A DNA stretch of 62,650 nucleotides, filler included, from Hausera hauseri (lineage: Eukaryota): assembly GCA_046269625.1 (NCBI GenBank). It is 10 parts of 10 records of this genome, joined end to end, with 100 filler letters (N's around TTAATTAATTAA, not from the genome) between each part and the next. Parts side by side here need not be neighbours in the genome. Positions count along the whole stretch, not along the records: positions 38,565 to 47,633 come from JBJURY010473243.1; 9 more parts are not named here. One strand, written 5' to 3'. A program made the translations under genes and the position numbers. Every line of letters begins with the position of its first letter. Positions within the stretch are counted from its first letter, which is position 1. This document shows, piece by piece, positions 2,869-61,947 of this stretch. A model generated the notes under the pieces. It did not search any database and was not told the origin of the DNA. It saw only the letters and a program-made list of their open reading frames with translations.

Positions 2869-2879
2869 AGTGAACTGGA

Positions 2880-16881: not shown

Positions 16882-17880
16882 ATCATTTTATGATATAATT
16901 CCGTTATTCCGACTTGTCCTTTATAGTAGAAGTAATCGTCTTTATTTTTCAGGTAGTCCTCAATCCGAACATCCTGCGTTTCTAATTTGTAGGTTCTTGA
17001 GTTTATTTCCGTTTCGGCTACAAAGAACGCTTCGTAGTTTGCGGCGAACATTACCACATCGCAGCGAGTTATCATTTTTTTACAAATTTTAGTCCATATG
17101 GGTCAGAAATTAATATAGTAGTTGTAGGATGTTCCGATACATCTTCGCGTGTTCTTGAATTACTCTCCGATTTGTCTACATAACGTTTTCCCGTAGTTTC
17201 ATTAAACTTTAACTCTTTAATTTTGATAAAGTTACAGCTCCTTCCAGAGGGAGGTTCCCATATTATAACCGAACTTCTAAAAGAACAGGTTCCGTCTTGT
17301 AAATGACATTTCTGATTCTTAGTGTATAATTTAGTGACACTATGGAACATTACCTTTTGTGATCGCATTTCTGATTCATAGAAATCCATAACTACCACGT
17401 TTGATTCTAATCCTTTTCCGGTATCGTATTCTGCTCCATTACAATGTCCGGTACGCATATCCAGCCTTCCAGCTACTACTTTCTATGCTATGATTATTTT
17501 TCCTGGTTTCATTTCTAATTTCATACTGTCCCATTGTACTCTTCCGTTCTCTTTAGCTTGTTTACAGTGTTGGCGTTCTAAATTCATTGGAATCAGCGGA
17601 GTAGTTGGATTGATTATAGAGGAATGTCCATGTATTAGTCCACAGTGGAAGATACTACGCGATCATTTCAACATGCACTCCATTCCGTCTAATGATATCA
17701 ATTCTTGTTGTTGATACAGGAAGTAATTTTTTTCTCTTGTTTTCAATTTGTGTGGTCTGGCATCCTCGCATGTTTCCAGATCCATTAAAGAATATCTCTT
17801 TCCTAGTTTAAACTTATCGCAATCATAGACGGTTACCCCGATTATACGCTTGATTAGCATCATTAAGGTGAGCTAGCTAA
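16882..17880 (-). pseudogene. env: Chuvirus-like (class III, gB/G-type) envelope glycoprotein, N-terminal part
   Basis: Hydrophobic signal followed by VTVYDC..YSLMDLETC, CGLIHGHSSII and CHLQDGTC..SVIIW..CNF. Confidence 0.72.
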
Positions 17881-20800
17881 TTAGCCAATTCGACTCATTT
17901 TTCCGACCTCCCACGTCTGACGTCGTCAGGTTACGTAACATGTCGTCGAATTTATTGTTATTTCGTTTGTCTTCTTCCTTGTCAAACAGTCTCGCCCAAT
18001 TTACTTCGCAAGGCATTCTTCTTGCTGTTCTCCGTGCTAAGCTTATAGACCTATTAATTTCATTTTCTCGATTAGGATTTTGATAGCTAAGTATAGTAAC
18101 ACCTTTCTCAATTCTTTATTCGTGTTTTCTACCATGATCTTTTTGATTACTGATTCATCAGTTAGATTGCTTTTCGATAGTTTAAAACTCGAACTTCGCA
18201 TCATTTTGGCTGCATCGAAAATTATCTTTTCTTTATCATCTAACACCTCCCCTCGAAAACTAGAGTAATTCACAATTCGTATTAGATTTTTCATTAACTC
18301 GCCTAATTCCTCGTTATCTGGGCTAAGAGCCGGAATCGACATCTGTCTCAATTCTCTCATTAATTCTCCATTGTAATCCACTTCTTACTGCAGTATTCTG
18401 AGTCTGCCTACTGGGCGTTTCGGTCTTGGACCCTTAGTGATTGTTTCACTCAATGGTACTAAATTTATGTCGTACTGTTCCTTATATTCGTCCGTTTGTA
18501 AATACTCAAAATATAATGAGGCGTCTCGGACTCCCATGATTTGTCATACGCATTTTTACGTTTTGGCTTTGCGTGTAGCTTTATCTTTTGTCTGTTCGTT
18601 AGCTATTACTACCACTATCCGATTTCTTTCGTCAGGAATGATCCCGACGTCTATCAGTTGTTTGAGAGTATTTTACCTCTAAAATAAAATCTGTAATTTA
18701 AATCGTTCGTTCCACCATTGTTTATTAACCATTCTCTTACATCTTTTACGTAGGAATATGTAATCAACTCGAATTCCTTTTCGTCCATCCATTCGGAAGA
18801 CTTTAGCGTACATCCTTATCAAAAGTTTCGGCACCGTACTATAAATCGTGTTTTCGCTAGATAATTTAGTTAAAGTTGGAATAAGTTGTCGTAGTTTATT
18901 CTCGGTAATATTTACGTTAATTAATTCAATCAAATCCTTTTCAGCTAGCGATGAATCCAGTAGCATTTCCACATTAAATCTCCTGTCTTGAAGGTATGTT
19001 TATATTTCGTTTAGTTGTACTGGAGTCATAGGTTTTCCGGCAAATATTTCGTAGAAGTATGCATCCCATTCGGGTTCGTTTCCGACATATGGAAGTCGGT
19101 AGTCCACAAAGACCATATTGGCTCTTTAGATGTTCTCCCGAATTTCCTTTAATTTAGGTTGTATTTCTTTCATTTTCGAAGTTCGGAAACCTACTCCATT
19201 TCCGCAGGCGTACTGAATCATCTTCAATAATTCACCGAATTCGTTAGAGTCAATCAGTTCTTTTTGGTGATAATCTGTTAATTCAAAATCACGTCCTTTT
19301 GCCATCTTTGTACAAATTCTCGTTTATTATTAATCTCGGATTCGGTAAAAGCGTATCTGTTTCGATAGACTCCGAGCTCTTTTGTTATTTCGTCTAACCC
19401 CGTCTCTCTTTGTTTTGTCTTGATACATGTTTCTTCTACTTTTTGTATCTTGTGCATCAATTGCCTCATCTGCTTATTGCTGATTTCTGCCATTTCCACT
19501 AATAAATAGGCTAACTCATACAGTTCATTTATAATCTTTGAATCAGGGTCCATTGCATCCGATAATTTCTTTACGAACTTGTGTTCCAGGAAACTAAAAT
19601 GTGGGTCGTTTTTTATTTCTATCAACTTGGTATGGAAATTCTGGTCTGAACCGGCCATCCATTCTTGAGGTCTGTGCAAAAATTTTATCGCATCCGTTAG
19701 CGTATCTTGATGCCCCGGACAAATGTTCAGGATTTCAATGTCTTGTGCAGAAATTTCTTCGATTGGTTTTCCGGTTAAGTATTGAATCCTTTCTAGTCGG
19801 ACGATCCTTAACTTTGAATTTATATCATAAATCATACTCCGTTTCTCCGTGAAGTTCGTTTATTCAATTAATTTGTAGATTTTCTCCATCGTCGACGCTA
19901 GTCGTTCCTGTTCCATAAATTTTAGTTGTCGTAGCGCTTCGAATTGAGTTTGGATGTCTATTTCTATTCGCAACGTGGCTAAATTGTATGCACTTTTCCC
20001 TAGTTGCTTTTTCACCGTTGGGTTACTTTGCGGAAATTCTGTTTTACTGTCTTCTACCAATTTTGTCAGCCGCGTTACTAATTCGGACCATTCCGACAGT
20101 TGATTCGCGATTACTGGTTTTGCCATTGTAGCCTTATCTAGCATCTTATATGCATCTTCTAACTCATCATCTGGTCCTCTTAGGAAATTCATAATCCGGC
20201 CGATTTAACTAAACTCGTCTTTATACTCCTCCAATTCTACGATACAAGCCTTAATTACATTTTGGGTCTCCTCGTTGTTTGGGAACATAATTCGATTTTT
20301 CAGACCATAAATCTGTGCTCGTATTTCATTTTCTATTTTAATTCCATTTTCTAAATTCGTATATCGTCTAGGTAAGCAAAGGTAAGTTTAATCATCTCCA
20401 TTAAAGGGGAAATATCTACTATGTCTATACCCAATATTTCTATGTCGATATTACTTCGATTACTAACCGGTTTTTCTTTGAGCCGGTGAATCATTGCTAG
20501 GCAAACTTCATCCATCATACGTTCTAAATTACGGACTACTCTCTTCAATTTTGGGTTTTCTTCCAAAGTTGATAATAGCGTTTGAGCCTTGGTAATTTTT
20601 GCATCGACACTGTGTTCATTTTTACTCCATCCTTCCGAAAATTCTACCCCGCTTTTAATCCACGCTTCCAATTCCTGCTTCCACTTTAACAACGTTTCGG
20701 TCGATACCTCTTCGGGTTGTTTTATGTCAATTGCTTCCGCAAACTTTCCTTCGCTACGCAGTTTCAAACTTTTATATAACTTCTCAGCGAATTGTTGTTC

Positions 20801-22066
20801 TTTTCCGGATGTCTACTTGTTCGCAAATCTGTTTAAGCCTTTTTAAGTCAAACTGTAATATTTCCGGCCCATCACGTTTGTTTCTCAGTCTCCTTAGTTC
20901 ATTGGCATTTTTCCATAAATGTCGGACTTTCCACTTCTTGGGATCGAAATCGTCAATATTCGCTGTTTTTACCTCACTAATGGGAAGTGGGCAGATCTTG
21001 TTAATTTCGTTAATTGACTCTACCGACTCTGCTTTTCCGACGGTTGTAGGTGAACCAATTTCTGGTGTACTCAAATTAGGACCCGTGTCGCCTCCTACGA
21101 CGTTCGGGTTTTCCGTTTCTTCAGTTTTCTCTCTGGTTATTTTGGAACGTGAACGACTTCTTCGCTTCGTTTTTAGAGAAGGGCTACGACCTCTACTTTT
21201 CGTAATTTTAAGTATTAATGGCTCCATAAATTCCTTTTCTGCTGTATCTGCTGTATCATCCTCAGTGAGCTTAGCTACTTTTTCGACTGTAAACTCAGGC
21301 TCTGCGTCTAACTCGACTGCTGTCGATGGGCCTGGTTTTTTAGGTGGTTTATTGCTTATCGGAACACTCTTTTTCTGTGTCATATCACTTCCTTTAGGTG
21401 GTATCGCGTGTTCATATTTAGTTTCTGGTTCTGCTAAGCCATGGTACACTTCTAGTAATCTCAGCTTATCCCCGTATTCTCTTCTAGCCATCAGAATTTG
21501 TAGGTTAGTGGTATTCGGTTGAGCATCTAGGAATTTTCTCAAATTCTGTATATCGATGATAGTGCCTGTATCTCCACGAATGCCATACTTTGCTTCTGAA
21601 TTCTCATTGATTCTAATCGTACTAGTCTTATTTGGCTCAGTAAATGAGACACTACGTGCGTTTGGGCATGACTTTGAAATGTATCCTTCTTTGCCACAAG
21701 TAAAACAAACCAAATTACCATTTCTGCCGACTCTCTATCGACCGTCTTCGCTCATTGGTGACTTAGATTTATTTGCACTCTTATTATACTGTTTTGGCAA
21801 ACTTTGCATATTATCGGCAGTTCGTTTGTTATCATTATTTCGATTATAACCGTTTTGATTCTAGTAGTTTGGACCCTTATAATTTCCTTTATTTCTATCT
21901 TAGTCTGATCTGTTCGTATTCCCATAATTATTACCTCTGCTATTTCTGTAACCGCCATTATTATTTCTATTCCCATAATTTCTGTTACCTGTAAATCGTC
22001 TGTCGTCTCTTCCACAGTTATCATTGCGATTTTTATCATTGTGGTCATTCCGATCATTATTTCTGT
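16882..22066 (-). mobile_element. Env-bearing Gypsy family B copy 1 (partial): gag C-terminus, long ORF-X, glycoprotein N-terminal half
   Basis: N/R/G-rich gag tail and CFTCGKEG(Y)ISKSC knuckle. Collinear homology with 42600-47633. Confidence 0.85.
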
Positions 22067-23065: not shown

Positions 23066-23192
23066 GAAAAAGGATTCGGTCCTCCGGTCACTCTGAGTAC
23101 TGACATCGATAAAACTGAGATTTCTGGGTTTGATTGTCAGGGTAGCGTCATTCACCGGATTCATCCAGTGGCATAGTCTCTGAGTTCGGTTG

Positions 23193-25385: not shown

Positions 25386-25625
25386 TTTTAGTCTTAATAC
25401 AAAGCATGATGATAAAAATTTATTAACATTAGATGGATATGAACAAAACAGAATAACAATATAACTTTAAATGTAAACTATATACAGTGATTACACGACA
25501 TAGAATGTTAGAAGTCATATATATCAGAACAAATCAGTAAGCAGATGACAGAGATATTCAGAAACAAGGGTCATAACAAAATATTTACACACGAATAGAG
25601 GGTTAGTAAGGTATTCAATGTATGT

Positions 25626-28193: not shown

Positions 28194-28427
28194 TCGATGA
28201 GGTTTTAAATCATGTTTGATTCGTNNNNNNNNNNNNNNNNNNNNNNNNNNNNNNNNNNNNNNNNNNNNTTAATTAATTAANNNNNNNNNNNNNNNNNNNN
28301 NNNNNNNNNNNNNNNNNNNNNNNNAAAAGAAAAGCAACAGCAGCATCATCAGGAGCAGCAATAGCAAAAGGAACAGATACAACAGGAACCCGACATTAAT
28401 GTCAAGTATGATCTGAACAGATCGTAC

Positions 28428-31400: not shown

Positions 31401-31709
31401 GAATGCTAATGGATATTCCTACGCCCAAAGTGCTACACTCCTCTGAGGGAGTGTGGACCAAAAATGTGGGCAAAAGGAGTCCAGCTGAGTCAGACGGAAA
31501 TCGACCACTGTGATTATCGCCGTATATATGAAGAAGCGAGAGAAGAAGGACAATCAGTGGATGTTGTACCTCAAACAATCATCCGATCAATTGAACACCA
31601 TCTGTACGTGATAAGTAGTGCGAAAGTCGCTTTGTCATGTAACAATGATACGCGAAAGTGGATGGTGCAAAATAAGAGTTGGGCGTATGGACATTGGCGT
31701 CTGAAATAA
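28428..31709 (+). mobile_element. polB: Polinton/Maverick protein-primed family-B DNA polymerase, fragmented
   Basis: SGW..GRSFIP..VVNVKN..CFLYS; YADIEA; endonuclease VII insert DHDHFTG..CNSCN; KGIFPYD; YIDI.NLYGWA; KLKNNSLYG; (Y)TDS; YGHWRL end. Confidence 0.92.
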
Positions 31710-31801
31710 AAGCACGTCCAAACAATCAGTGCTCTGTCGGTTCAGAAAAATTAGTTCAGTTCAGTTCAGTTACTGACAATCATTGACAATTATCCGATGT
31801 A

Positions 31802-33247
31802 AGTAGTGTGAATATGGCGGTTCTATACCACTTCCGAAGAGAATGTCCATTCGGTCCCATCCGGGGGAGGGAATAATCAATAAATATGTTTTGCACATGT
31901 GCAGATCAATAATGCACACTGTGCACTATTAATCCAAAAAGTGCCTAGTAACGGTGTCGTTAGGCACCGCTGCTATGCACATTTTTGCACGTTCACACAT
32001 CGATCGCTGCACAGTGCAGTATTGATCGAATCGATCTGCACTTTGTGCTAATCGATAATGCACATCAATGCACATCGACTGGTGCAAGTGAAGTGTGCAG
32101 CACATGTGCAAGTGTGCAAAAATCAATAATATTGGATTTCCGATGTTTCAAAAAGTGCTGATTAGCACTCGGCAGCGGGTGAATTCGGTAGTGCACACGA
32201 CGGGCTATGTGAATGTGCAGTTAAAATTTAAATCGATTGATTGGTTTTTGAATAATTCCAATTGGTGTCGAACCGCCAGAGGCCTTTCCGCTATAAATTT
32301 TAAATCAATGATATGAATATGGCACATATACTGGCGTATGCAGTACCTGATGTAGTATCGAATAATGCACAAAACGAGATTGGTGTGTTTATTTATCGGT
32401 GTGCAGGAGCACTTTTTCACTTTGCGCACTTTTCCATTTGGTCAGCGTAGGATTGATGGAATTGATCAGGGTCAAGTGTAGTTAGATAGAGAACATCAAG
32501 ATGCACCTTCACGGGCGGGCTGCAGTGCAAAAATATGTGTGGAAGTGTGCAAAAATCAATAATATCGAATTTCCGATATTTCCAATATGAATGATTAGCA
32601 CTCGGGACCGGGTGCATTCGAACACAAACATTATGTTGTATATGAATGTGCAGTTAGAATTGAAATTTATTGATTACATATTGATTAATATTGATCGAAA
32701 GTACAAACTGGCTATATTTTCAACACGTTTCTTAAGCCTAGGGAAGCAAAATTCGATCCAACATGAACAAAGACAGATAGGAAATAGAGTATGGAGAACT
32801 CGAATCTCGAGTTGAAAGTTCGAAATTCGAAGATTTTCGAACTTGAATATCGAAGTTCAAACTATTCGAAAAATCTAACGACAGAAATCGATTCCCAATA
32901 TTCGAAAACCCTCATGTACATAAAAATTATATCATGGAAAATGTACTATATAGATACAAAAGCAATATTTCGAATTAATCAAAATGTGCATTTAGAGCGC
33001 AGTGAAGCGGAAATCAATAAATCTAATAGCGAGGCGGGATAAAAAGCCATGTATGCCGATTGCGAATGTGATATTAGATATTCGAATTCGAGCTTACAAG
33101 TCGAATACTTGACTATTCGAACTCGAAAACTCGGTTAAGCGTGCATTATTCAAAGAATGTGATAGCGTCCATCGATTGGGCATATATGAAAACCTATTCA
33201 AATCTGGCGCGCGTGATATTTTAAATCACTTGATGCATTAAAACAAA
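31802..33247 (+). repeat. Second copy of the Polinton-type terminal repeat, starting AGTAGTGTG
   Basis: Inverted homolog of 147-1550 with the same TGCACA-rich and TTCGAA-rich subdomains. Confidence 0.7.
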
Positions 33248-35152
33248 CAAGCGATAAGTGCGTGATAAGTTCATTCATTTGATGCATTAAGACAAATGTA
33301 CATTATGTTGATAATACAACAAATTGGCAAAAACATGCAGTGCCAAATGTACCCCGCCATTAAAATTATTTCCTTACATGTGTTTTTGTTTTACTGCATC
33401 AAAAAATTATTTCCACACGTGTTTTTTTTTGTTTTGCTGCATCAATTATTAAAATTAGACGGTGCGTGCTGACAGCTATATTTTTCATTNNNNNNNNNNN
33501 NNNNNNNNNNNNNNNNNNNNNNNNNNNNNNNNNTTAATTAATTAANNNNNNNNNNNNNNNNNNNNNNNNNNNNNNNNNNNNNNNNNNNNTATATATATAG
33601 AACTTATTGAAGAAAATGTCGAGTCTCATGTTGCAATCGATTGTCGGAACGAATGTTTAGGAAATGACCATTAAAATTTTTTCCAAATTCAAGAAAACGT
33701 ATTCATATAATTCACTTGTATATTATTAATAAGCATAAAATTTCGTATTTGTGTATAACTAATTTTCATGAAAGCATGTCAAGCGGTAAAGGCCCTTTTG
33801 ATGTTAGGAACTTTTTAACCTTGTAAAATTATAGATATGGGATTGCTGTCTGATTAGCATCATCTTCACCATTAAAAGCCACTCATTGGCCTAGTGAACC
33901 TCTTTTCTCTACATTTAATTGTGTCACCATTCTATTGCTTTCAAATATTCAACATTCCAAATTTGGTTGATAGTATAATTGCTTTAATATGAACCAGAAG
34001 AATCAATGTTTACGCAAAACATAATCCACAATTTCTCATGATACGCCCAAAATTATATTGCAAGTTCTCTCACATTTATTCTTTATTCTAAACTGTTCAA
34101 AACATCATAAGAATCGTATATAAGAACCTCAGTTTGTCAAATACCTTTTCATCACTCTTAATAAAACTTTTAGATTTATAATTTGATATTTTTGACCTCT
34201 TTTTAATAGACTATACAAATTAATTATTCTTATAGAAACACGCCCTTTGAGAAAATCGAGATAATTCAATACACGAGCTTAATAGAAACGAAAAATATAT
34301 TGATAGTCAAATTAATAAATGATGATGAATAATTTTAAAGATAAAATAAAAACTATAAAACAATATGATTATATAAAATTCATTGAAAAAAGTTAAAGTT
34401 CTTGATACCACTTATGTTTGGGTTCAGCGCACAAACGAATTTAAACACTGAATACTCCAAACAAACCATATGGAACAAAATAACAGGGGAAACACACAAA
34501 TATCACCACAAGTGGACAAATATTTACTCATTATTAATTTCAGCACTTAATCAGCACTTAAATGTAATGTTGAACTAATGAAAGGTACATATTAACATTT
34601 TATAAAGGCACTAATTTTTGCATTAATATTTTATTATTAAATTATTTTTTAACAAGCTTAAAAGTCCTTAGATGTTAGTGAATAACCCCTTACAAGGAAA
34701 CGAATTTACTGAAATTTTTGGTTTTTATAATTAATCAGAGAGACGTGCAAAATATAATGCTGATTAATAATATGAAAAAAATTTCATCGAGGAAGACAAA
34801 ATAACGCATATGGAGCTTTTAAATGTGACGGCATTTTGCACTTGTTCCAATCTCCCCTATATGTTGATGGATTGTGAACTTGAACAAAATTGTCATTACT
34901 TTTCTCGAACTATTATTCTTTTAACATTCTGTTTATCATGTTTTTTTGATTTTCTGCGGAAATAAAAAAATAATCACCGAGTAGAGTCTGTGGTCAAGCA
35001 TGTCAATATCCAAAATGTATACACGGGAGTAGGGGGAAGGGAGGACATGAAGACAATATAAATTTCCTATCTCGAGACCCCCAGGATTGGAAATCAATAA
35101 TCAATATTTTTATATGGGAAAAATTTTGAAATCGATATTTTTTTGTGATCAA

Positions 35153-38564: not shown

Positions 38565-41500
38565 TCTTGTGGGTCGTAGGCAAATGTCCTACAATATCCA
38601 TAGACATTGCTTGCATTTGTCTATCGGGCACGTCGATAGGCGTAAGGTCGGCGATGTAGCTTTTCACCTTTCTTTGTTTGGTTGCACATACTTCGCAAGC
38701 GTTTACCCAATTTCTCACGTCGATACAAATGCTCGGCCAATAGTACTTATTTAATATCCTTTCCAATGTCTTTTTCCACGACATATGCCCAGCTAAGTAT
38801 AAATCATGCTCTGCCATTAGTACTTCTGTACTCAATCCTTTTGGTATGACTACCAGTTTTCGTCTTTTTCGTTCATAGTATAACACATTTTCCTGAATCC
38901 AATCTCCACCGACTCAGTATTTGTGACCACATCGTCGTAGGTGTTTCCGTAACTGATGACATCTTGGTGCCTTACTGATATTAACGAATTCAACAATTTG
39001 TTGTATAACGTTGTCTTTTCTATTTTGAACAGCAATCTTTAATGCCTTATCTAGTGTGAGAGTCCTTTGTCTTTCTACTAAATCTTTTAAGAATGTATTC
39101 CTCATTACTGTAACTGCGCTTGTTTTGATTTTAAGTCTCCATAATGCATCTGCATTGATGTGTTTATTTCCGGGCTTGTATTGGAATTCGATGTTGTAAC
39201 ATGAAATCTCTTCAATTCATCTGTTAAGTCTACAAGTTGGGTTATTCGCCCTACCTTTTAGGGTTGTAACTGCCTTGTGATCGGTAACGATTACAATCTT
39301 TTGTCGGGCGCTCCAACTCTTCATCTTCTTGTTTTTGGGCTAGTTCATATCCGATACCTTCTTTTCTGGCGTCCGTTTTGATTATGAACGGTAGGTTGAA
39401 GTCGGGATATTTTAAGACGGGTTCTTTTTCATTTCATCAAAAGCTTTTTGTTTGACATCGGTCATTTCCATTTGATCCCCTTTTTAAGCAAACAATACAG
39501 AGGTGCGTTTATTTTCGCATTGTCTGGCACGTAAGTAGCATAATACCCGCACAACCCTAACCAGTGTCTTAATTCTTTCTGATTTTGAGGCTCACACAAT
39601 CTGATATCTTACTCAATAATGATTTATCCGGCTTAGACCTTCCTTCTCCAAGTATACGTCCAAGGTATGATATAGCATTTTGAGCCCATTTGCACTTTTG
39701 GGATTCAGTTTCAATCCCTCTTACTCCAATCTCATGAGTGTACCTTCAATGTCCTTTAAATGATCCTCTTCCGTTTTCGACGCAATCATAATGTCGTCCA
39801 AGTAGGCGAACGCGTGTTCCAATCCCATTAGCATGTTATTCATCATGCGCGTAAAAATGGCTGGTCCGGGAGTTATTCCAAATGGCATAACATTAAATTC
39901 ATATATACCGTTGTGTGTCTTAAATGCCGCTTTGTAACGATCTTCCTCTTCTGTCTCTACCTGTCAATATCCAGATTGTAAATCAAGCGTGGTAAACCAT
40001 TTAGCACCCGAAATTCTGTCCAAAGCTTCCTTTATCGACGGTAATGAAAAAGAGTCCTTTATCATAAGTGTATTTAATGCTCTATAGTCGATACAAAATC
40101 TGTGCTTACTGGTACCTTTTTTTTAACCATGAGTCTCGGGGAATACCAAGATCTGTAGCTCAGTCTAATTATGTCGTCCTTTAGCATTCGTTCAACTTCT
40201 TTGGTTATCTCTGGCCTTAATGAGTGTGGAGGAGGATACCATTTCTGCATTTTATGATCCTCTAAGTCTATTTCGTCATTGGATCCAGGCTTTTTCTTAA
40301 GTGAAATTGTAAGTCTTAAAGTTTTAGCTCGGCCAATATCTTTTTCATCTCTTGTAATAATCGAACTATAACGACAAAGTAATTCGTAAAATCGACAATA
40401 TGATTCTGGTAAGAACTTAGTCTCCACGTGGGGCGGAAATTCGGCACCCTTATATGGTTTCTCCTCAATATTGATTGATGATACTCTATACGTGTGTACT
40501 AGAGTGGTATTGGCGTATAGTTTAATCGGAGTCGGTGCGTTATTTGCTATTCTGATTGGCACGCGGCCTGTTGATACTCTTGCCAAAACATTGCTGAGCA
40601 CGAGGTTTGGATCGAGCGATTCCTTTGGTTCAAAATGTATTGGCTGATCGTCATCCTGACGTATCTGAGCACATATAAGTATTACCGTTCTAGACGGTAT
40701 GTTTTCATCTACTGGGATCCACACTTCTCCAAATTTTCTGTCTTTAGTGGTTTTAACTCCTTTTATTGGGCCAAGTTCTATCAACTTGCTTGCAGTGATA
40801 TCGATTGCTATATTAGGTAGTTGTCTCAATAAGTCGCATCCTAATACCACATCATCCGTTAGTTGCTTCATTACTGAAAATTCATTGTGAAAAGATTGTC
40901 CCATTATGTGAATTTCTGGTTTCCATCGAAATTTACTCTTCGAGGATTGTCCGAAAGCTCCAATGTTTTCTAGGTCTGCCGTAGGAGGTGGATATAATTG
41001 TTTCCGTAAGAATTGTGGTATCAAATCATATTTTATCAGTGATATTTCAGATCCTGTATCTATTAGTGCATAAACCTCCCAATCGTCCAACTAAATCTTT
41101 GCGAAGGGCCTGCCTTCGATTACTGTACCGTAATAGCTTGGCGCTATCTTGGGTTGTCGTATCTTAGACACTTTGTAGCCGTTGATGGTAACGTCAGTGG
41201 TTTCAACTGGCTGATCGATTAACTGTCTTAGCTCTCCTATTGGGTATAGTTCGTTATTCGTACCATTCGCGTTTTCTACTCCTTGGTTTCTAACTGGCGG
41301 CTGAACATCTTGGTTTCGGAGATTGCGTGTCTCACAATTTCTCGTAAATAGTGACTGCGTTTCATTTGGTCTAGGTGCTCTAGGTGAATATATTATACCG
41401 TGATCGTCGACTGCTGAGCGACGGTGTGGGATAATCGTTCTCTCTGTTTCGTGGATCTTGCGCAATATCCCGTAGCGTTTTTTTCCTTCATATGGATTTT

Positions 41501-44500
41501 CTATGTTAAATGGCTTCCGATAGACGTCTGTCTGACACGAGCTCATAAATTGTTTCTCTCCATCTCCATATATAGGTGCCGTTGGTGGCAATATTGGTAA
41601 TGGTAATTTCATATCAAAGTAGTTTTTGTGCATACTCGGCCTGGTGATGATGTCGCCTCCCTTAGGCTCGTCATCATCCGAATTATTTTTTCGTGTCTTA
41701 GCATTTATGAATTTTTGCCTGTAGTCAAATATATTTCTTTTCCGCTTTCGATTATGGTAGCCAACATGTCTTTCTACATTCGTTTTCCATTTACTCTCTT
41801 CGTAAGCCCTTAAGAATTTGCCAAAGAGAGTAATAATAGCCGCTAAAATTTTGCACGAAAATCCTGTCAAGGTAAATATCTTGTATCCATTTATGATTGC
41901 TTGAATTATAGCTTCTACCAGTTGAATTAACAAGTATATCGCTAGAAATCCTCACGCGATATGTCCGAATATCATGAATCTTTCCCAGATTTTATACAAT
42001 ATCTCTGTAGTTACTTTTTATAATAGCCAACACCAAGTAGTGACTCCCATTTTGCCTGGTAACGCGAATCCTCCAATATTGTATGCATTACTCTGTTTAA
42101 TTCATGTGTGCGTTGACGGGGAAAAGCAAGAAACTGTCTGAACGACTGTGCTTCTTTTGGTCGGTAAATTCCCTTCGCGGCTGTATCCTGAAACTTATCA
42201 TTGGTTATTCCTTTTATTAAGTTTGTTCCTGTCAGTTTTGTAGGTGGTGCGATAATACCACCGTTCGGTAAACTTACCCAGTCGGTTTCGCTACGTCTGA
42301 ACATAGGCTCTCCTAAGCTGGTTTTACAGTCTCTTAAAATTGTCGGTTGAGTGGCATTAGCCAACAACACTCTGGTAATTGGTGTTACTAACCTCGGTAC
42401 GTCCTGATATATCACTAGAAGTTCTTGTATACACCTCTGCTCTTCCACATTAATCGGTACGTCTTTCTTCTCGCACTCATACATCAATAGAACCCCTCCG
42501 GTTACTCGTCCAAAAACACCTTCCTTCATCGGAATTATTGGTGATGCCAACTCGGGATTTGCATATATTAAAGATAGTTTAGTTCTCATGATTTCCAAAT
42601 CCAACTTGCAGTCGTTTGTTATCATCTTGTGGTACAATTCGGCTATTCCGGCTTGTCTTTTATAGGAAAAATAGTCGTCTCTGTTCTTCAGATAGTCTTC
42701 AATCCGGATGTCCTGAGTTTCGAGTTTGAACGTTCTGGCGTTTATTTCTGTCGCGGCTACGAAAAATGCTTTATAGTTGGTGGCATACATTACGACGTCG
42801 CATCTGGTGAGCACAGCTTTCTTTACGAATTTTAATCCATGAGTATCAGATATCAGTATCGTAGGTGTAGACTGTTCAGCTACATCTCTTGTTTAGAGTT
42901 AGTTTTTGTGCTACTTATGTATCGTTTTCCTTTCGTCTAGTTGAATTTAAGTTCTTTAATTCTGATAAAGTTGCAATCGGTCCTGGCTGGGGGTTTCCAA
43001 ATTACTACGGAACTTTGAAACGAGCATGTGCCATCCTGAATGTGGCACTTGTGGTTCTCGTTGTAAAATTTAGTAACAATATGAAACATTACTTTCTGTA
43101 CACGCATTTGGGTTTCGTAAAAATCCACTACCACGACGTTTGACTCTAATTCTTTTCCGGTATCGTATTCTGTACCTTGACAATGTCCGGTGTGCATATC
43201 TAGCCTTCCTGCTGCTACTTTATACACTCTGATTATTTTCCCTTGCTGCATTTCCAGTTCCATAACACCCCATTTTATTCTTTGCATTTCTCTAGCTTGC
43301 TTACAATTCTGATGTTCTAAATTCATCGGAATTATTTGGGTTGTTGGCTTGATTATTGACGAGTGCCTATGTATCAGTCCACAATGGAAGATGCTGCGAG
43401 ATCGCCGCAATATACATTCTACTCCATCCAAGGTAATTAGTTCGCCTTGTTGATATAGCACATAATTTTTCTCCTTCGTTTCTAATTTATGTGTCCTCGC
43501 GTCTTTGCACATTTCCAAGTCCATTAACGAATATTTTTGGCCAAGTCTAAACTTATCTCAGTCATATACTGTAACTGCGCACATTTGTTTTATCAACATC
43601 ATCATGGTCACAAAGTTTATTAACCAGTTCGATTCGTTTCATCTGCGATTTCCAGTTATATCTCGTAGCAGATCTCCCAATCTGTTGTTATTAAAGAAGA
43701 ATCTATTGTGATGCTCTTCTTATTTCTTAAATAGCTTCGTCCAGTCCACTTCTCGGGGTAGTTTCCTGGCAGCCTTTATTGCCAAATTAGTAGCCTTGTT
43801 AAATTCATTTTCTCGATTTGGGTTAGCTTTGATGGCCAGATATAGCAGTACTTTTCTTAATTCTTCTATGGTATTCTCCACCATAATTTTCGCAATTATC
43901 ATTTAATCGCTTAAGGTACTTCTGGATAATTTACACCGAAGGCTTTTTATAGCCTTTGCGGCGTTCGCTATGGCTTTCTCTTTCTCATGTAATACATCAC
44001 CGCCGAGACTAGAGTGGTTTACTATTCGTAGAAAGTTTTTCATAAGTTCGTTCAATTCCTCGTTATTCCCATTGAAGGTTGGTATGGACATCTGCCTCAA
44101 TTCCCTAATTAAGTCTCCATTATACTCGATTTCTTCCCATGTCTTCAGTGGTCTTCCGACAGGACGCTTCTGTTTTGTTACAACAGGTATACTGATATCG
44201 ATCGGTACTAAATTTTTATCGTATTGCTCATTATCTCCATCCGTTTGTAGGTACTCAAAATATACTGCTGCATCTCGGACTCCTATTATTCGCCCTACTG
44301 CTGTTCTGCTTTAGACTTCCTTATAGCCTCCTCCTTTGTTTCGTCGATAGTGGTGGTTACCACTAACCGGTTTACCTCACCTGGAATAATTCCAACTTCT
44401 ATTAATAGTTCCGACTCATATAGTATCCTTAATCTAAAATAAAGTCTATAACTCAGCTAATGGGCGTATCCATTGTCCTTTATCCACAGTAATACATCCT

Positions 44501-47500
44501 TTACAAAGGAGCGCGTAGTAAATTCTTGTTCTTTCTCGTCTATCCAGTCCGATACTATCTTTACTTGGATAATTTCCTCTGGCTTTGCCTTTAAGATTTT
44601 AGCATATTCCTTAAGTAAAAGCTTGGGTACCGAACTAGAAATAGTACCTTCGTTAGATAATTTAGTTAAAGTGGGAACTAAATGCCTTAATTGATTTTCA
44701 GTGAGGTTCACTTCAGTTAATTGAATTAAATCTTTTTTGGTTTGCACCGGGTCCAGAAGCATTTCTACGTTGAACCTTTGGTCCGGAAAATATACCTCCA
44801 TTTCATCCAATCGTAGTGGGGTTTTCGAATTCTCGGCAATCATTGCGTCTAAATATTCCTCCCAATCTGGTTCGTTTTCATCCTTTGGCGGTTTATAACT
44901 CTTCAACAAGGTATCGGTTGGCCTGCCCGCAACTGTGGGCTATGTAGTTTTTCTGAGTTCTTGTAGTTTCTGTTGCATTTGGACCATTTATGTCGTTCGG
45001 AAGCATCGTCCATTAGCGGACGTTTGGTGTATCAGTGTTAAAAACGAACATAATTTTTCGGGGGAAATTAGCCCTTTTTCTTGATATTTCGTTAGCTCGG
45101 ACGTGACATCTCTGTTCCATCTTTGAATGAATTGTGACTTGTCAGCTTTTTCGGTTTTTGTAAGGGCATATTTGCTTTTATAGACTTCGAGTTCTCTAGT
45201 TAGTTCGTCTAATCTCATCGCTCTCTGCTTCGTCTTAATGTAAGTTTCTTCGACTTGCTGTATCTGCTGTAACAATTGTCTTAGTTTCTCGTAGCTAACT
45301 TTTGCCATTTCTGCCATCAATAGTGCTAATTCGTACATCTCGTTAATACTCTTTGAATCCGGATCTACCGCATCTATTAATTTTTTTACAAACTTGATCT
45401 CTTCGAAGCTAAGGAGGTGGTCAGTCTTTCTTTTAATCAGTTAAGTATGAAGTCTCTAATTCGTGCCGTCCATCCATCCTTGCGGGTGTTGTAAGAATTT
45501 TACCGTTTCTTCCACGATCACCCGATATTCGAGACAAAAGTCCAATGTTTTAAGATCTCGTATTGAGATTTCATCGATAGGCTTGGCCATCAAATATTGT
45601 ATCCATTCAAGCGGACATCTCTCAATCGCGGATAGAAATCGCAAGTCGCATTCCATTTCCGCATGAAAAATGTTTCTTCAATCATTTTATATATATCCTC
45701 TAGTATCAGCATCTCTTGTTTCTTTTCCATAAAATCTAATTGACGTAGTGCCCCGAATTTGGTTCGAATGTCAATCTCTGCTTTCATCGTATTTAGATTT
45801 CGGGCGTCTTCTTCCAGTTGCTTATTAACTGTAGGTTCACTTTCCGGAAATTTCTCTTTCAATCGGCTACTAATTTACTCAGCCTAGTTATTACTTAGGA
45901 CCATTCTTTCAACTGATTAGCGATTTATGGCTTTGCCAGTATTGCTTTGCTCAACAATTTCCGAGCGTCTTCTAGCTCGTCATCTGGACCTTTAGTAAAA
46001 TCGATAATCTGGCAGGCATAGTCAAACTCATCATTAGATTTATCGAATTCGAGAATGCAAGTCAGAATTATTTTCTGTGTTTCATTATCAGCTGGGCGCA
46101 TAATCCTATTCCTTAGACTATATATCTGCGACCGTTTTTAGACTTCAATCTTAATAGGATTTTCCAGGCTGGTATATTGTCTTGTCGCAGTAGAAGCGAT
46201 TTTTATCATTTTCATTAAGGGTGGAATATCTATCGGATCTATGCCCAACATCTCTAAGTCGTTTACATCTTGTTCTTTGACCGGCTTCTTTTTTAGTTGC
46301 TCGACTATGATGAATCTAATTTGGTCCATGACACGCTCTAAGTTACGCACTACTCCGTTTAATTTCGGGTTAACTTCCAAGGTATTTAATAACGACTGAG
46401 CTTGAGTGATTCTAGTTTCAATGTCTTGGGTAGTTTTATCCCACGTCTCCGGAAATTTCGTCTTACGTTTGATCCACCGTTCTAATTCACGTTTCCACTG
46501 AACTAGCGCTTCTTTTGCCACTTCTTCGGGCTGATCGAAGTCTATAGCTTCACTTAGTTTCCCTTCACTACATAATTTCATATTTTTATATAGTCTCTCT
46601 ACGAACTGCTGTTCCTTACTAGAAATATCCATTTGTTCGCTCATTGCTTTAAGCTTCTCTAGGTTCTGTCGTAATACGTCTAAATTGCGACAATTCATCC
46701 TCATTCTTTTTAACTCCTCTGCATTTTTCAACGAATGTCTGATTTTTCACTTTTTAGGATTGAGTCTCTCCTCCTGTTCTGTTCCTTCATCGCTAGTGGG
46801 TAAAGGACATATATCATTTATTTCTTTTACAAATTCTGTTAATTCACTCATTTCCCCGGGCGTAACTAATTTAATTTCTGGAATGTCTAAGGCGAATTCT
46901 GTATCATTTCCCAAAGTGATTTCGGTCTCTCTCGCTATCTTTGATTTCTCTTTGATCATTGGGGATCTCGAACGGTCTTTACGTTTCCGTCTCAGTGATG
47001 GGCTACTGCCTCTATTCTTGGTAATTTTAAGTATAAGTGGTTTGCGAAATTCTTCTTTTTTGTCGACCTCTGCCTCCTTAGTTACCGTTTTTATAGTATA
47101 TTTGGGTTCTACATCCAAATCTGCTTCGCCAGGGATCTCAGGCTTTTCTATTTCATCTAACTTTTTATTTATTGCAGGAACGTTCTTTTTCCGTGCCATA
47201 TCACCCAGCCTTGGTGGGGCAATGTAACGTTCATATTCCGTTTTTGGTTGGCTCAGATCATGGTAAACTTCCATTAGTCGTAATTTGTACTCATATTTGT
47301 TTCTAGCCACTAAAACTTTGGAGTCCTTGGTTTCAGGCTGGGCTTTCAAAAAACGTCGTAAATCCTGTATCTCTATAATCATTCCTGTGTCTTTACAAAC
47401 ACCGTAAATTGCTTCTAAATTTTTATTTTTAATTACGTTAGTCTTACCAGGTTCCACAAACGAGACATTTCGCGGATTCAGACAGGACCTTGCTATGTGT

Positions 47501-47633
47501 CCTTCTTGTCCACATGTGAAACAGACTAAATTGCCATTTCTTCTAACTCTTTGTCAGCCATCTTCATTTAATGGAGATTTAGATCTACTCGGATTTTTAT
47601 TGTAGGTTTGCTGCGGTGGAGCCTGTCTTGGGT
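38565..47633 (-). mobile_element. Env-bearing Gypsy family B copy 2: gag(CCHC)-ORF-X-env-PR-RT-RH-IN, decayed and cut by contig ends
   Basis: CFTCGQEGHIARSC (~47480-47525); glycoprotein 43620-41800; PR ALIDTGSEISLI; RT TLDLQSGY, VMPFG, AYLDD (~39795); RH end YKPGNKHINADAL; IN H..AGH..YYWP..CEVC, SMDIVGHLP. Confidence 0.92.
41800..43620 (-). pseudogene. env: Near-complete chuvirus-like class III envelope glycoprotein with C-terminal TM
   Basis: YD(C)..YSLMDLEMC; NDCKLDLEIMRTKLSL; GVFGRVTGGVLLMYEC..RCIQEL.V..VTPITRVL; TM FMIFGHI..FLAIYLLIQLVEAIIQAIING. Confidence 0.78.
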
Positions 47634-47733: not shown

Positions 47734-47881
47734 TTTGATCCACTTGAGATGTATTACCCATCATCGCTGGTGACAAAATTGGAAAGTATGCGGCAAACCG
47801 TTACCTACAATGATATTACGCACCAAAATCCATTGACATGGGAATTATTGTGTGTACTGGTTTAGACGCCAATGTACATGA
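47734..47881 (+). pseudogene. C-terminal fragment of a second adenain-like protease
   Basis: FDPLEMYYPSSLVTKLE..TYND..QNPL..GNYC, homologous to 36417-36719. Confidence 0.75.
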
Positions 47882-47927
47882 AATTGTTATAAACGTTGTT
47901 GTGTTAATAAATATTATTGTTGAAATA

Positions 47928-48413
47928 ATGCTTGCCTTATTTATTGACTTGGAGGGATTTATAGATAATAATAATGAATACCTGATAAAAGAGCTCTGTA
48001 TAATGCCAGTGGATAATATGTTTCATCTACTACATCATGTATTTGCGTAAGTGAATTTTAGTATAGTGCATGTTATGTGTGCTAGTTTTAGATCTACAAT
48101 GCATTGTTGTACAAACAAGGCTCAAGCAGCAAATGCTTATTTGGCACAACATTGTCATAAACTGACTTGAAAAGAATATAATATCCTGTTTTGGAAATAT
48201 TGCCTTATGCGAGATATTGGGAATATATGTGATATAAATGAATCCATGTTCTATATCGAAGATCATGCTGATGGGAGAAAGAAGATATTTAATAAAACAT
48301 TTTCAGAATTGCGAATTTGTGCTTATGAATGTAGCAAATTGGTAGCTATAGCAAAGAACATTACATGTATTTATCCTGTACATGGTTCGCATTGTGCTTA
48401 TAAAACTGTTTAG
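47928..48413 (+). pseudogene. DEDD-family exonuclease-like Polinton accessory gene, disrupted
   Basis: LFIDLEGF..YLIKELC at the N-terminus and C..H..HCA near the C-terminus. Confidence 0.6.
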
Positions 48414-48479
48414 CGTTATATCAAAGTTATATTGTTACTGAATAAATGTGTTATGAAAAATAGTTGATTTTATAAAACT

Positions 48480-48800
48480 TAAAGTATATTGAAAAGCATG
48501 TATTGAGCAACAATCTCAATAATAGTATCAGCACTGTCACTGTCAATGTCAGGTTCTGTATCTGGTAAGAATTCATGTAGGGTTTTTATCAGGCACCCTA
48601 CCCACGTTACATACAAGCACTTGTCTTCAGCATCCTGGGCTATCACATACTCGCACTTTATTCTGCATATGGGACAAAAATTTTACTGCTTAGCCATTTC
48701 TGCATATAGCATATAGAGAAAGTATGTATATCGCATGTCTCCAATCTTATTGTTATATCCGACATCTGCTCCCAACAAATGGGACAAGTTTTCGAAACTG
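48480..48800 (-). pseudogene. Small RING-finger gene, frameshifted
   Basis: CPICWEQM..LETCDIHTF..C.MQKWLSSK/FCPICR. Confidence 0.6.
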
Positions 48801-49043
48801 AAATAATGCAGGATTAATGCAAGTAAATGTCGCACTGTATTGATGATTCAAATTTCAAATTTATTGATTTTATTGATCTAAGTTTTACATAGTCTTATCC
48901 TATATAGTAGTTACTTAGTTTTACTTGGCCTTATCTTATATCCCACATTACTTGATCAAAAACTCGAGACAATTATTATAACAAACATTTATTGGTATAA
49001 AAAATACAACTCATATCTAATAATACAACAACAATGTTCGTAT

Positions 49044-51970
49044 TTACATTAGTGTAGCATGTCCCTGAGGCAATGTGCTGATTCCGGCTTCACGAATGTG
49101 CCTTTTTTCATAGAACCAATCGAGGCTATTTGTCTGCAGCGCAACAATGACATTCTTATGTTCCCGGGACTGTATCCTCTTCACCTCGCTGACTATGTGA
49201 GTTTGTTCCCGCAACACTCTCTCAAAATCTGCAAAGCTTGTGTTTTTAGCTAATGTGGCCCTTTGAACTCCCTTGGCTCGATTCTTTACCTGACCACTTA
49301 TTTCGAGGGCGTACATTTTTGATCTCAACTTCGTCTTTAAACTTCCCGAGGACCTTCTTGTTGGCGATTGAATAATTTGGATGATCCTTCGGATAGTCCG
49401 AGGTATCCATATACTGCGCCAATTTTTAAAGACATATTCTGTGTGGATCTGGTACATGAAACTGTCCGAGTCCACATACATTAATTGGAACTCCTTAATT
49501 GTGGGGAACATGATGTTGTAATGAAAGTCATACATCAAGGTCTTGGATAGATCCTATATGGACATGCTTACATATATAGGCTTGTTGAACTCAAGTGATG
49601 TCTTGAGCATGTGGATACTTACCGGGTTCTTCGTGCAGATTGTGATGCTGTTGAAGTTGGGCTTAGCGATGAGATTCTTTGCCGTCTTCCAGTCACATAC
49701 CAGCTCGATGTTTATCGAGTTCCGGATGTTTTCCATAGTTTTGCTAAATACCGAGTTGTTATTCAGCTTGAATTGGTCCTTTTCAAACTCGTTTTTGGCA
49801 TTGATCCTCAACTGGGTATTGAGGTTTATGTATGCATTCAACCATTTGGACTGGCTAAACTGCAGGGCCCGATGAATCCTATTTACTAGGAGTCTATTTT
49901 TGATGGCCTGTTGGCGGTTTATGTAGTGGACTACATACCTCTCCTTGTTTTCGAGGTGTCCCAGCAACTTCTTATGCTTGCCATTCGGCGGACTCTTGCT
50001 CTCCGGCAAAAAAGGCAGCTGCTCATGCCTTGTGTGGATGCTATATAAGTATTCCACGTCCACTTCCAGTATATAAACCGTATTTCCATTGGGATCTATA
50101 CTTTCAATATCCAAGACTTGCGGCTGCTCCATACATTGAAAGTTATTATGGGACAATGGGTTGCTCATTGCCCATCCATACATGTTTTTGGCATCCAGGT
50201 ATGTTATATAACTAGGTGCCTTGGATGGGTCATAATCTGCCATGTATTTGTTGTTGGCCTCACTGTAACTATGAATGACCTGGCAGATTCCGCCCCTGTT
50301 GCCTCTCTCAACCACGAGGATCATATTGTAATTTTTCAAGATCTGGAGTCTTATGCCGGTATAGCACACATTGCCGCCCAGCTTATTTCTGGAGCTGTAA
50401 AGAAATGGGCTGGGTCTAACTTGTGGATCTTAAGGGTCACAGCCTGAAAGCTGTCGAAGATATTTTTAAGCAACAGCACATTTGTGAGGAAATAGATATC
50501 ATTGTATTCCCCTATTGTCCTGCACTGGAAGGTCTGCAATACTCTTTGGGTATTCTCATAGTCAGCATCGCTAATATGACTGTATGACAACTGACTACAA
50601 AAGTTCTTCTTGGCCGGTAATGTTTCTTCATCCAGTGCTTTCCATGACGTTATATAGTCATAGGGTAATACTCCTTTCCGCTTCACCAGGTCAAATGTAT
50701 CCGGGAAGAATCTCTTCGTCTCCTTGAGCTCATCAGCTGGAAGTTTCTTCACGATGCTGTCCAGTGACGAGCTTATGAAGCGGAAGCTATCAATAAAGCG
50801 AAATGTAATGCAGCCCACATGCTTTGTGAAGGTGATGTACTTCTCCTCACTATTTGGATTTACATCAATGTTCCTCTCAATATTACCCAATTTTCGAATA
50901 ATAAAGTAAAATCGTATCCACTAAGATTGTGGAATACCACGGAAAATATGTATATGTGTTGCAGCGTAAGTTGCAATTGTTGCACGCTGCGCCTTGGTAT
51001 ATGCTTGTAAAATGGCAGTGACCGCTGACTTTGTGATTGTCTCATGTGAATGGCTTCTTGCATAGGTTGCAATTTTCTGCTTTCTGCCATTCATATTTTC
51101 CTTGTTGCGACATGACCATGTAGCCCTTATCCTGCTGCAATATGTCTTCAAGTTTGTGAGCATACTGTTCCGTACGCTGCATAAAATGTGCAGCTGCATT
51201 TAGACCCCTGAATAGGTAGGGTCCTTTGCCCCGTCCTTTTACATACATGCAGTATAATGATAACTCATGGTACTAGTATGCTGTAGTACTGCTTTGTTGC
51301 AGATTGGGGCTTTAGCTGTGAACTGGGCAGAGGATGGCTTCAAAGTCAGAAAATATGACAATTGACACCTTCTGCATCTTCTCGAACTCCTTGAATTCCA
51401 TGTAATCCTTCTTGGGGAATTTTACTCGGATGCAATAATTTGTATTGCAGTAGGTCGTGTGATCCTCCAGCTTTTTTGCGGCTGTGTTTCCACTAAAATG
51501 AGTAAAGCATTTTTTGCATATTTCCAGCCTTGATTTATGCTTCAATATTTGGGATCCTACGAGGCGCTTAAAATTCTGAATCCAGATGAAATGCCTCTTT
51601 TTCCATCATCAAGCAGGAGCAGATCCTTATGATACTCCAATTCCTTCCTGCACATATGTAAGGGATAAATTTGTCTTCCTTCAATCCGAAGATGTTGATG
51701 GAGATGTTGTTCATACTTTCAAATTTCGCGACTTCATCTTGGCTTGGCGGGAAGGAAATACAGCTGAAATCGTATGTGTGCTGCACTTTGTTATATGTGC
51801 AAACTCGGGAAGCATTATGTTCATCCTGGACTAGTTTTGACAAAATAGAATATATGAAACACATGCTGTCCTCATTATGGACATTGATGTATGCCTTTTT
51901 CTTAACTATCCATTCAGGAAGCGGTATGTAGGAGCTGCCTCTCATGGGAGAATACTTGTGCACATGCACA
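49044..51970 (-). mobile_element. polB: Polinton protein-primed PolB, fragmented, 5'-truncated
   Basis: GSSYIPLP, FSDFEA, FHNLSGYD, FIDSFRF, RKGVLPYDY, YLDAKNMYGWAM, FKLNNNSVF, YVDSDSF, TLPQGH. Confidence 0.92.
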
Positions 51971-59030: not shown

Positions 59031-59260
59031 TTAGTAGTTGTTGTATAACTTCTTTTTCGGCATCTGTATGCGTTTCGATTTTTTCTGTAATATAGTCATT
59101 ATGATATTTTAGATCTATTTGATCAAATAAACCATTGGCGATTAGATTATTGATCAGAGATTTCCACTGTAAGTTCCACGTTTCATTTGTACAGGTTTTA
59201 ATTAGACTTTCATGAATGTTGACAATAGCGTCCATGATTGATTCTGCAGTCTTTGAGAAC

Positions 59261-61204: not shown

Positions 61205-61857
61205 TCAGACCTTCAGATTTAACCAGTGAGCAACTTGGAAATGATCACATTTATAGAATATTCTATTTAATGCATTGCTTTATGATTGAGCCCTGGGTCA
61301 CTTGTGCAATCATGAAATCGCAAGAGCTCTGTTTCAGACGTTGAGCACCGAGTCTGCATGATTATGTAAAAATGGGGTTCGCTTGACACATCACCTAGAA
61401 GGGTTCAGCCCTAATTTTCCACGATTGTGGAGCACCTTTGTTCACATTTTAACATTTGACATTTATTTCTGACAGGTGAAAAAGAAGAACCAGAAAAGGA
61501 AACCCCACTAACCGAATCCTGTACGTAAACAGTGTCAGCAAACTTTAAAAGTAAAATAAAAAATACAATTTTCTACATTTTACTGCACTACTGGTTCTAT
61601 ATAACCTGGGGCTAAAATGTGTTTTTATATAAAGAGAACAACAAAGAAGTCCATCAACACTTGGGTCCTCCTCATGAGCGACTCTGTCTGCACGTGCTCA
61701 AAACGCAGAAGCTTGTCCCTGAACATGTGGAGACCAGGACACTTTACAGCACCTATCAGCCAAATATATCCCAGGTTGGACGTCACACTCAACTGTCTTC
61801 ATATCCACTCAAGTACTCTGCTCTTATTTTGTGTAAAACTTGAAATATTTGTTTTAG

Positions 61858-61947
<90 letters not shown>

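Follow-up and report, generated by a model that had tools for sequence, protein, structure and literature searches.

The locus examined here raises the question of whether a retroelement can carry a viral fusion glycoprotein between gag and pol as part of a single giant polyprotein. It lies in a window of 62,650 nucleotides from Hausera hauseri, which consists of ten separate contigs joined by 100-nt spacers; the element is one whole contig (38565..47633). Its visible part runs from within Gag to within integrase (IN); the capsid, the LTRs, the target-site duplication and the bulk of the integrase core fall beyond the contig. The element is best read, with a probability of about 0.85, as a decayed member of a high-copy Ty3/gypsy family that follows the known GAG-ENV-POL (Burro-like) design and that, when intact, very likely encoded one polyprotein. 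From one public run, 16,922 contigs map to the element stretch and cover all 30 of its bins. A second copy in another contig of the window, copy 1, shares 65–67% nucleotide identity with the element (65% over 5,062 alignment columns), and is a distant subfamily rather than a sibling copy. Among the copies of the element's family that were seen, none is intact.

Pfam matches on the minus strand run in the order zf-CCHC, an unmatched stretch (ORF-X), PF24664 Monjiviricetes_fusion, RVP, RVT_1, RT_RNaseH_2 and Integrase_H2C2 (Table 1), the order of modules given in the preliminary description. The succession of protease (PR), reverse transcriptase (RT), RNase H (RH) and IN, together with a gypsy-type RT, places pol in Ty3/gypsy (Metaviridae), and the Pfam position of env between gag and pol is that of gB-type GAG-ENV-POL errantiviruses. 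The capsid is expected past the contig end at 47633. ORF-X is long, as had been described; its size was put too low at some 1,200 aa, and it is itself broken. A DTG just behind the knuckle, considered as a second protease, was dropped by eye as its flanking residues are wrong.

Table 1. Features of the element and of copy 1, in window coordinates
Feature	Position	Strand	Evidence and remarks
Copy 1 (other contig)	16882..22066	-	Runs from R/N-rich Gag tail and knuckle across ORF-X to inside env
CCHC zinc knuckle, nucleocapsid end of Gag	47482..47523	-	Pfam zf-CCHC, E 1e-5; knuckle also in copy 1
ORF-X, about 1,280 codons, hydrophilic, E/K/L-rich	43660..47481	-	Stops and three frame switches; no membrane segment
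Likely ubiquitin-like domain in ORF-X (non-significant)	44355..44570	-	Two-copy profile against PDB
AT-hook-like motif KRPVGRP	44143..44169	-	Motif scan; retained in copy 1
Conserved helical domain directly before signal sequence	43720..44130	-	64% and 52% identity between copies
Predicted internal signal sequence	43567..43626	-	Hydropathy peak in both copies
Putative gB-like (class III-type) glycoprotein ectodomain, PF24664	41997..43575	-	Stops and two frameshifts
Env membrane anchor region	41823..41996	-	Hydrophobic segments 41948-41892 and 41879-41823, then basic cluster; PF24664 profile 538-607
Env tail / linker	41115..41822	-	Stop-free, same frame as protease
Retropepsin	40818..41114	-	Pfam RVP, E 7e-6; DTG at 41060; TAG 41093-41091
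Ty3/gypsy reverse transcriptase, YLDD, decayed	39690..40122	-	RVT_1, E 2e-29
RNase H, decayed and frameshifted	39305..39427	-	RT_RNaseH_2, E 1e-9
Integrase zinc finger and start of core, cut at contig end	38565..38847	-	Integrase_H2C2, E 8e-18

The knuckle and both ends of ORF-X share one reading frame with the env N-terminus, and a single TAG is all that interrupts the frame common to the env tail and PR; translation agrees with the preliminary description on each of these joins. The coding path has 26 stops over its 3,014 codons and the two off-frames have 224 and 280, a difference beyond chance. The frame switches lie near 45852, 45611 and 44309 in ORF-X and near 42893 and 42010 in env, with about five more in pol; contigs of one public run carry indels at three of the element's frameshift sites. 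In the region shared with copy 1, 15 of the element's 16 stops face a sense codon and the remaining one falls in a gap, while 11 of 13 copy 1 stops face a sense codon in the element (the other two are outside the alignment). The two copies have four and seven frame switches, none of which coincide. At the ORF-X/env junction the element has stops at 43722, 43641 and 43560, all said earlier to be sense codons in copy 1. This holds for two of them; 43641 lies in an alignment gap, where the translation of copy 1 has no stop. The copy 1 TAG at 17875 faces a sense codon in the element, as had been noted. Stops and frame switches are thus private to each copy, and the proposal that the copies decayed independently is borne out.

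Over the 4.9 kb that the copies share, mismatches fall mostly at third positions, apart from windows that cross frame switches, with dN of 0.15–0.32 and dS ranging from 2 to saturated. As two copies saturated at synonymous sites nevertheless have no stop or frameshift in common, a single ancestral ORF is well supported. No stop or frameshift between the modules is conserved in both copies, and the protease TAG is not family-wide. Because the breaks are private and relatives are open, the intact family very likely had one giant ORF in which env stood in frame, with gag ahead of it and pol behind. Private breaks, coding constraint and open relatives likewise support the original proposal of an ancestral polyprotein that exceeded 3,000 aa and held a class III-type glycoprotein between gag and pol.

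Even with one long ORF, the chief source of Env (or Pol) might be a message that is spliced or started internally, the giant polyprotein being minor or never made whole. Equal output of Gag, Env and Pol (1:1:1) is unusual, and env comes from a spliced message in other retroelements; in addition, there are in-frame methionines in the signal sequence region of the element. However, copy 1 has fewer methionines in that region, and continuous coding constraint and the stop-free junctions of relatives fit read-through translation better, so that this route is considered unlikely.

Programmed recoding between modules, by read-through of the protease TAG or by a conserved frameshift setting the Gag:Env:Pol ratio, is suggested by the lone in-frame TAG just before the catalytic DTG, since retroviruses such as MLV use read-through near PR. 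At position 41093, however, 5765 of 5827 summed depth (44 contigs) has another base, so that 99% of the depth from other copies lacks the TAG. The stop density is about 0.9 per 100 codons, at which a domain of 99 codons has a better than even chance of holding a stop, and no stable RNA structure lies behind the TAG (z +1.14). There is no frameshift common to both copies, and relatives are open at the env–PR junction. Across the tail–PR junction, single contigs of one public run span the join and no indel is listed. Copy 1 ends inside env and is uninformative here; coverage of the env–PR junction thus comes from one copy and short contigs of one run, possibly the source sample. Within the contig, from the knuckle onwards, recoding is largely refuted and is regarded as highly improbable. 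A nested insertion of env, alone or together with ORF-X, into an ordinary gypsy element, or an assembly chimera to the same effect, is more improbable still: the window does join short contigs and the ends of the element are not visible, but copy 1, which is saturated at synonymous sites, has the same ORF-X/env junction, single contigs cross the tail–PR junction, and env and RT indicate the same relatives, which keep the same order. The check for nesting therefore came out against it, as the junctions are conserved across copies and relatives, save for an insertion older than the entire clade, which would amount to gene capture and not nesting.

The single-ORF layout recurs in the nearest env relatives. 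Thirteen of the 14 best env matches were scanned; in nine of them a stop-free ORF continues from env into PR or RT, in a tenth such a match is weak, and three end in env. Of 14 long relatives, 5 carry a knuckle ahead of env, and P0002 and P0026 span knuckle to integrase. P0002, an env-before-pol protein, is both the second-best env match and the best RT match among 127 RTs. The named RT matches of the element are gypsy-type pols, and BEL/Pao proteins among the env matches are weak only (P0072, P0079). In a quick RT tree (128 columns) the element stands on a long branch within no starred set, and its nearest rows are env-before-pol proteins, without support. A word-based env search and scans of viral and metagenome contigs, which are weak negatives covering up to 2,000 aa, gave no match.

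The glycoprotein matches PF24664 above the cut-off in three frame pieces (E 2e-14, 1e-22 and 9e-12; profile positions 37-227, 265-509 and 538-607 of 653). Against PDB, all 39 matches of the env family profile are herpesvirus gB, the best with E 1.5e-4, over one 74-residue stretch. Judged by sequence, the env ectodomain is class III-type and gB-like, in line with the class of fold expected in the preliminary description. An RxK/RR furin motif was not found in the ectodomain. By hydropathy only, the ectodomain is flanked by a predicted signal peptide and a TM; in gB-type GAG-ENV-POL errantiviruses the flanks are a signal peptide and a TM, or two TMs. The signal segment is the only hydrophobic segment between the knuckle and the env TM, and 8 of the 14 long relatives show a hydrophobic peak directly ahead of env.

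That an internal signal peptide and a TM anchor thread the chain through the ER is plausible on this hydropathy prediction. Gag and ORF-X would be made in the cytosol, after which the internal hydrophobic segment would direct the chain into the ER, with cleavage just before env. The ectodomain would fold in the lumen as a gB-like trimer, and one TM would bring the chain back to the cytosol, with the second hydrophobic segment running parallel to the membrane. Host signal peptidase and the element's own protease are predicted to cut the polyprotein; the retropepsin would separate the env tail from PR, RT/RH and IN and set these free. ORF-X may be accessory cargo freed from Gag, comparable to the Burro cargo between gag and env. 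Of the two hydrophobic segments behind the ectodomain, it may be noted that two true TM passes would place PR in the lumen.

The suggestion of an undescribed lineage was not upheld, as Burro (PMC6431247) and gB-type GAG-ENV-POL elements (PMC13524379) are already published. The planarian Burro / GYPSM1 elements, described in 2019, are giant gypsy-like LTR retrotransposons of more than 25 kb with long LTRs; in a Burro ORF of 4,873 aa, env stands in frame with gag before it and pol after it, and the giant ORFs (4,873 and 5,140 aa) encode Gag, CCHC knuckles, long cargo, env and PR-RT-RH-IN (PMC6431247). The same source describes Burro as high in copy number, with a ubiquitin/SUMO-like motif ahead of an env that matches mononegavirus fusion glycoproteins. 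The element resembles these in its very likely giant ORF, long cargo, env in frame ahead of PR-RT-RH-IN and high copy number. One knuckle is seen in it where these have two or three. The ORF-X pieces that were scanned gave no Pfam match for Bcl-2, MATH, BIR or ankyrin; whatever follows IN lies outside the contig. The Burro env is likened in PMC6431247 to gypsy, baculovirus and paramyxovirus Env, whereas that of the element is gB-like, a comparison made by description only. Chary and Hayashi (PMC13524379) report gB-type GAG-ENV-POL Ty3/gypsy 'ancient errantiviruses' in Platyhelminthes, Bryozoa and Nematoda, which share with the element a Ty3/gypsy pol, a gB-type env and the position of env between gag and pol. 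By eye, the N-terminal half of env in the element and its nearest relatives is far closer to six Schmidtea 'Platyhelminthes_C1a' rows of that source than to its nematode and bryozoan rows; by this likeness of env a flatworm host is likely. In contrast to those elements the present copy is decayed; the terms polyprotein and single ORF do not occur in the main text of PMC13524379, and its available text mentions no ORF-X-like cargo. Nematode endogenous retroviruses are cited there as Metavirus that has captured an RNA-virus glycoprotein and carries env ahead of pol, and the nematode env rows of that source are by eye unlike the env of the element.

The BEL/Pao element Anakin, with a chuvirus-like G, has the glycoprotein family PF24664 in common with the element; it has a BEL/Pao pol with env downstream, whereas the element has a gypsy-type RT with env 5' of PR and does not belong to BEL/Pao. 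The non-canonical nematode endogenous retroviruses of Sacco et al. 2022 reportedly have a continuous gag-env-pro-pol ORF and are not known to carry ORF-X-sized cargo. The element thus adds a high-copy family with unusually long cargo to a published, little-studied class of enveloped retroelements. How a single ORF yields usable capsid, fusogen and enzyme ratios, and whether particles are infectious, is not addressed in the available text of PMC6431247 and PMC13524379. A decayed, truncated copy is a poor handle on this question; intact natural relatives are already public, namely P0002, P0026 and elements in supplement 1 of PMC13524379.

Newness is limited to ORF-X, for which no homologue was found; absence from print is not claimed. 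Between the two copies it has a third-position mismatch pattern and dN of 0.24–0.32 against dS above 2, and it is under purifying selection. Hydropathy gave no hydrophobic peak within it. Comparing 11 ORF-X frame pieces with 153 env-search proteins, phmmer gave nothing better than E 0.2, and pairwise comparison of ORF-X domains with P0021, P0011, P0010, P0001 and P0002 was non-significant (best E 0.055). In the ESM Atlas, 46138-46746 had only a weak dynein-tail-like helical match, with recognition below threshold. The two-copy profile has five PDB matches, three of which are to ubiquilin-type UBL domains (E 0.77–1.1), two covering positions 84-155; a ubiquitin-like domain is likely on these non-significant matches, and a low-confidence AlphaFold model of the region (pLDDT 55) did not yield a ubiquitin fold. 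Fold searches with two low-confidence ORF-X domain models gave nothing clear, with no Bcl-2 or ubiquitin among the rows listed.

The helical domain before the signal sequence stands where Burro and three relatives carry a Bcl-2-like domain. In the element, domain, profile, pairwise and fold searches with this domain found no Bcl-2 match (AlphaFold model pLDDT 43), and a word-based search, a weak negative covering up to 2,000 aa, gave no match. A Bcl-xL match of a mixed alignment, at E of about 0.2 only, was set aside as carried by a BH2-like motif of the relatives. It is doubtful that ORF-X is a new conserved accessory block of 1,280 residues (long helical stalk, ubiquitin-like domain, AT-hook and highly diverged Bcl-2-like bundle), tethered to the ER through the cleaved signal sequence as a matrix-like capsid–Env bridge or host-control protein, in a lineage distinct from Burro with an RNA-virus-style membrane-threaded polyprotein. 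Weak Bcl-2 matches occur in relatives P0010, P0001 and P0021 (E 0.001, 0.007 and 0.07), and a similar AT-hook-like motif lies ahead of env in 5 of 14 long relatives.

The decayed GAG-ENV-POL Ty3/gypsy retroelement fills one entire contig of the window (38565–47633, minus strand), and Pfam bears out the module order proposed for it in the preliminary description: CCHC knuckle, an ORF-X gap, the PF24664 glycoprotein (env), retropepsin (PR), RT, RNase H (RH) and the integrase (IN) zinc finger. ORF-X, about 1,280 codons between knuckle and env, has no credible Pfam match. The contig begins about 35 codons ahead of the knuckle and breaks off near the start of the integrase core, which leaves capsid, LTRs and any target-site duplication out of view; contigs on either side of a spacer (N44-TTAATTAATTAA-N44, 100 nt each, between the window's ten contigs) are not genomic neighbours.

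Features of the element and of other contigs in the window
Feature	Position	Strand	Evidence
CCHC knuckle		minus	Pfam E 1e-5
Monjiviricetes fusion glycoprotein PF24664, three frame pieces		minus	Pfam E 2e-14, 1e-22, 9e-12
AT-hook-like motif, ORF-X	44169		common to both copies
Ubiquitin-like candidate, ORF-X	about 44590–44360		two-copy profile
Hydrophobic segment ahead of env	43623–43567		hydropathy
Decayed gypsy-type element	1–9504, RT 6899–7399	+	
Decayed gypsy-type element	9605–16781, RT 13405–14106	-	
COR-B (Roc-COR) match	2874–3488		

The intact element very probably encoded a single polyprotein (probability about 0.85). Copy 1, on another contig (16882–22066), is 65–67% identical to the element, with mismatches concentrated at each third base throughout the shared 4.9 kb; the coding frame is therefore set without recourse to stops. 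Each of the seven stretches measured, among them those of ORF-X, shows a dN within 0.15–0.32 and a dS between 2 and saturation, which indicates that the copies are distant subfamilies, that knuckle, ORF-X and env were selected in both, and that decay came later. Stops number 26 per 3,014 codons on the element's coding path, a few of which may reflect imprecise frame boundaries, versus 224 and 280 off frame. Within the shared region, 15 of the element's 16 stops lie opposite a sense codon and one in a gap; 11 of copy 1's 13 stops face a sense codon in the element, the other two being beyond the alignment. None of the element's four frame switches there coincides with any of copy 1's seven. With no stop or switch in common, and with the junctions open in relatives, both the one-polyprotein ancestor and the independent decay of the copies that had been proposed hold up. 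A stop stands about ten codons ahead of the knuckle in both copies (47556 in the element, 21737 in copy 1), one codon apart; the codon aligned with either stop is a sense codon, and the pair is read as a coincidence of decay.

Env or Pol could instead be supplied by splicing or internal starts. The single open frame is met again among relatives of the element. With the middle env piece as phmmer query, 1.84 billion representatives yielded 236 matches at E up to 0.001, the top ones being long proteins. Domains were scanned in 13 of the 14 best matches (a 203-aa fragment was omitted): PR or RT lies downstream of env in the same ORF in nine, and weakly in P0007, while three stop within env. The knuckle precedes env in 5/14 long relatives, P0002 (2,627 aa) and P0026 (2,146 aa) run from knuckle through integrase with no stop, and P0153 has an additional weak retrotransposon-gag match. 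P0002 is also the top match among 127 RT matches, those with names being gypsy-type; a quick tree gave no supported position for the element's RT. Since env and RT lead to the same relatives, a nested insertion of env is disfavoured. The NCBI entry for P0002, a knuckle-env-pol polyprotein, stands under a Flavobacteriaceae MAG and is most likely an animal contig mis-binned into it. The element has one protease, whereas in several intact relatives (P0001, P0003, P0004, P0011, P0013 and P0151) env is followed by protease-like DTG/DSG motifs, two to six in number. Further hydrophobic segments follow integrase in P0002, P0004, P0014 and P0151; this part of the element is missing from the contig.

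The protease TAG is decay. One public run, which may be the source sample, contains the element (share of words 0.26), and 16,922 of its contigs align to the stretch at 85% or more, filling 30/30 bins; the family is therefore highly repeated. Some of these contigs have indels at three of the element's frameshift sites, and no indel is listed across the tail–protease junction. A read-through site is rejected, as the first base of the TAG is another base in 5765/5827 of summed depth (44 contigs of that run) and the RNA downstream folds no better than shuffles.

Matched against the PDB, an env profile of 41 sequences drew 39 hits with E no higher than 1. Every one is herpesvirus gB, over one 74-residue stretch, the best E being 1.5e-4. 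This supports, at the level of sequence, the earlier assignment of env as a class III-type fusogen. No furin motif was found in the element's env. Chary and Hayashi (PMC13524379), who cite Sacco et al. 2022, describe gB-type GAG-ENV-POL Ty3/gypsy elements of nematodes, bryozoans and flatworms. The element's env is most like their six Schmidtea rows, judged by eye, from which a flatworm host may be guessed. The claim of an undescribed design thus fails: the element is genuine, though decayed, and belongs to a kind already in print. Its family may be Burro proper or form a separate branch.

ORF-X is hydrophilic and rich in E, K and L, and no search tried returned a homologue. AT-hook-like motifs ahead of env also occur in 5/14 relatives. 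The ubiquitin-like candidate was named ahead of the profile test, in which the two-copy ORF-X profile drew five PDB matches at E up to 10; three were related ubiquilin-type UBL domains on the candidate span, at a non-significant E of 0.77–1.1. A low-confidence model of this domain lacks the ubiquitin-like fold, and the assignment is at most suggestive. Relatives have UBL-like parts as well, to which the candidate may be akin. Immediately ahead of env, three relatives match Bcl-2 weakly and show a BH2-like motif; the corresponding domain of the element gave no Bcl-2 signal.

A route for the polyprotein through the ER is plausible as a prediction from hydropathy. The hydrophobic segment ahead of env is the only one from knuckle to env anchor, is kept in copy 1 and in 8/14 long relatives, and may serve as an internal signal sequence, cut ahead of env. 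Two hydrophobic segments end the ectodomain; in 13/14 relatives a single above-threshold segment follows it, then a basic cluster, so one TM with a membrane-lying helix is likelier. The env tail, PR, RT, RH and IN would then stay cytosolic, where retropepsin would release the four pol domains.

The two other gypsy-type elements are about 65% alike across 1.1 kb, and the COR-B match lies upstream of the first. Contigs 47734–51970 and 56485–62650 have 2.4 kb in common at 83% identity; their long ORFs (647 aa at 59264–61204) have no Pfam match. Contig 22167–28224 carries, on the minus strand, an open frame of 832 aa that contains ankyrin repeats, then a RING finger ORF. Contig 28325–33489 holds pieces of a type B DNA polymerase and an endonuclease VII match, a combination we take to be that of Polinton/adintovirus-like elements, and has a 1.4-kb repeat in common with 146–1542, inverted.
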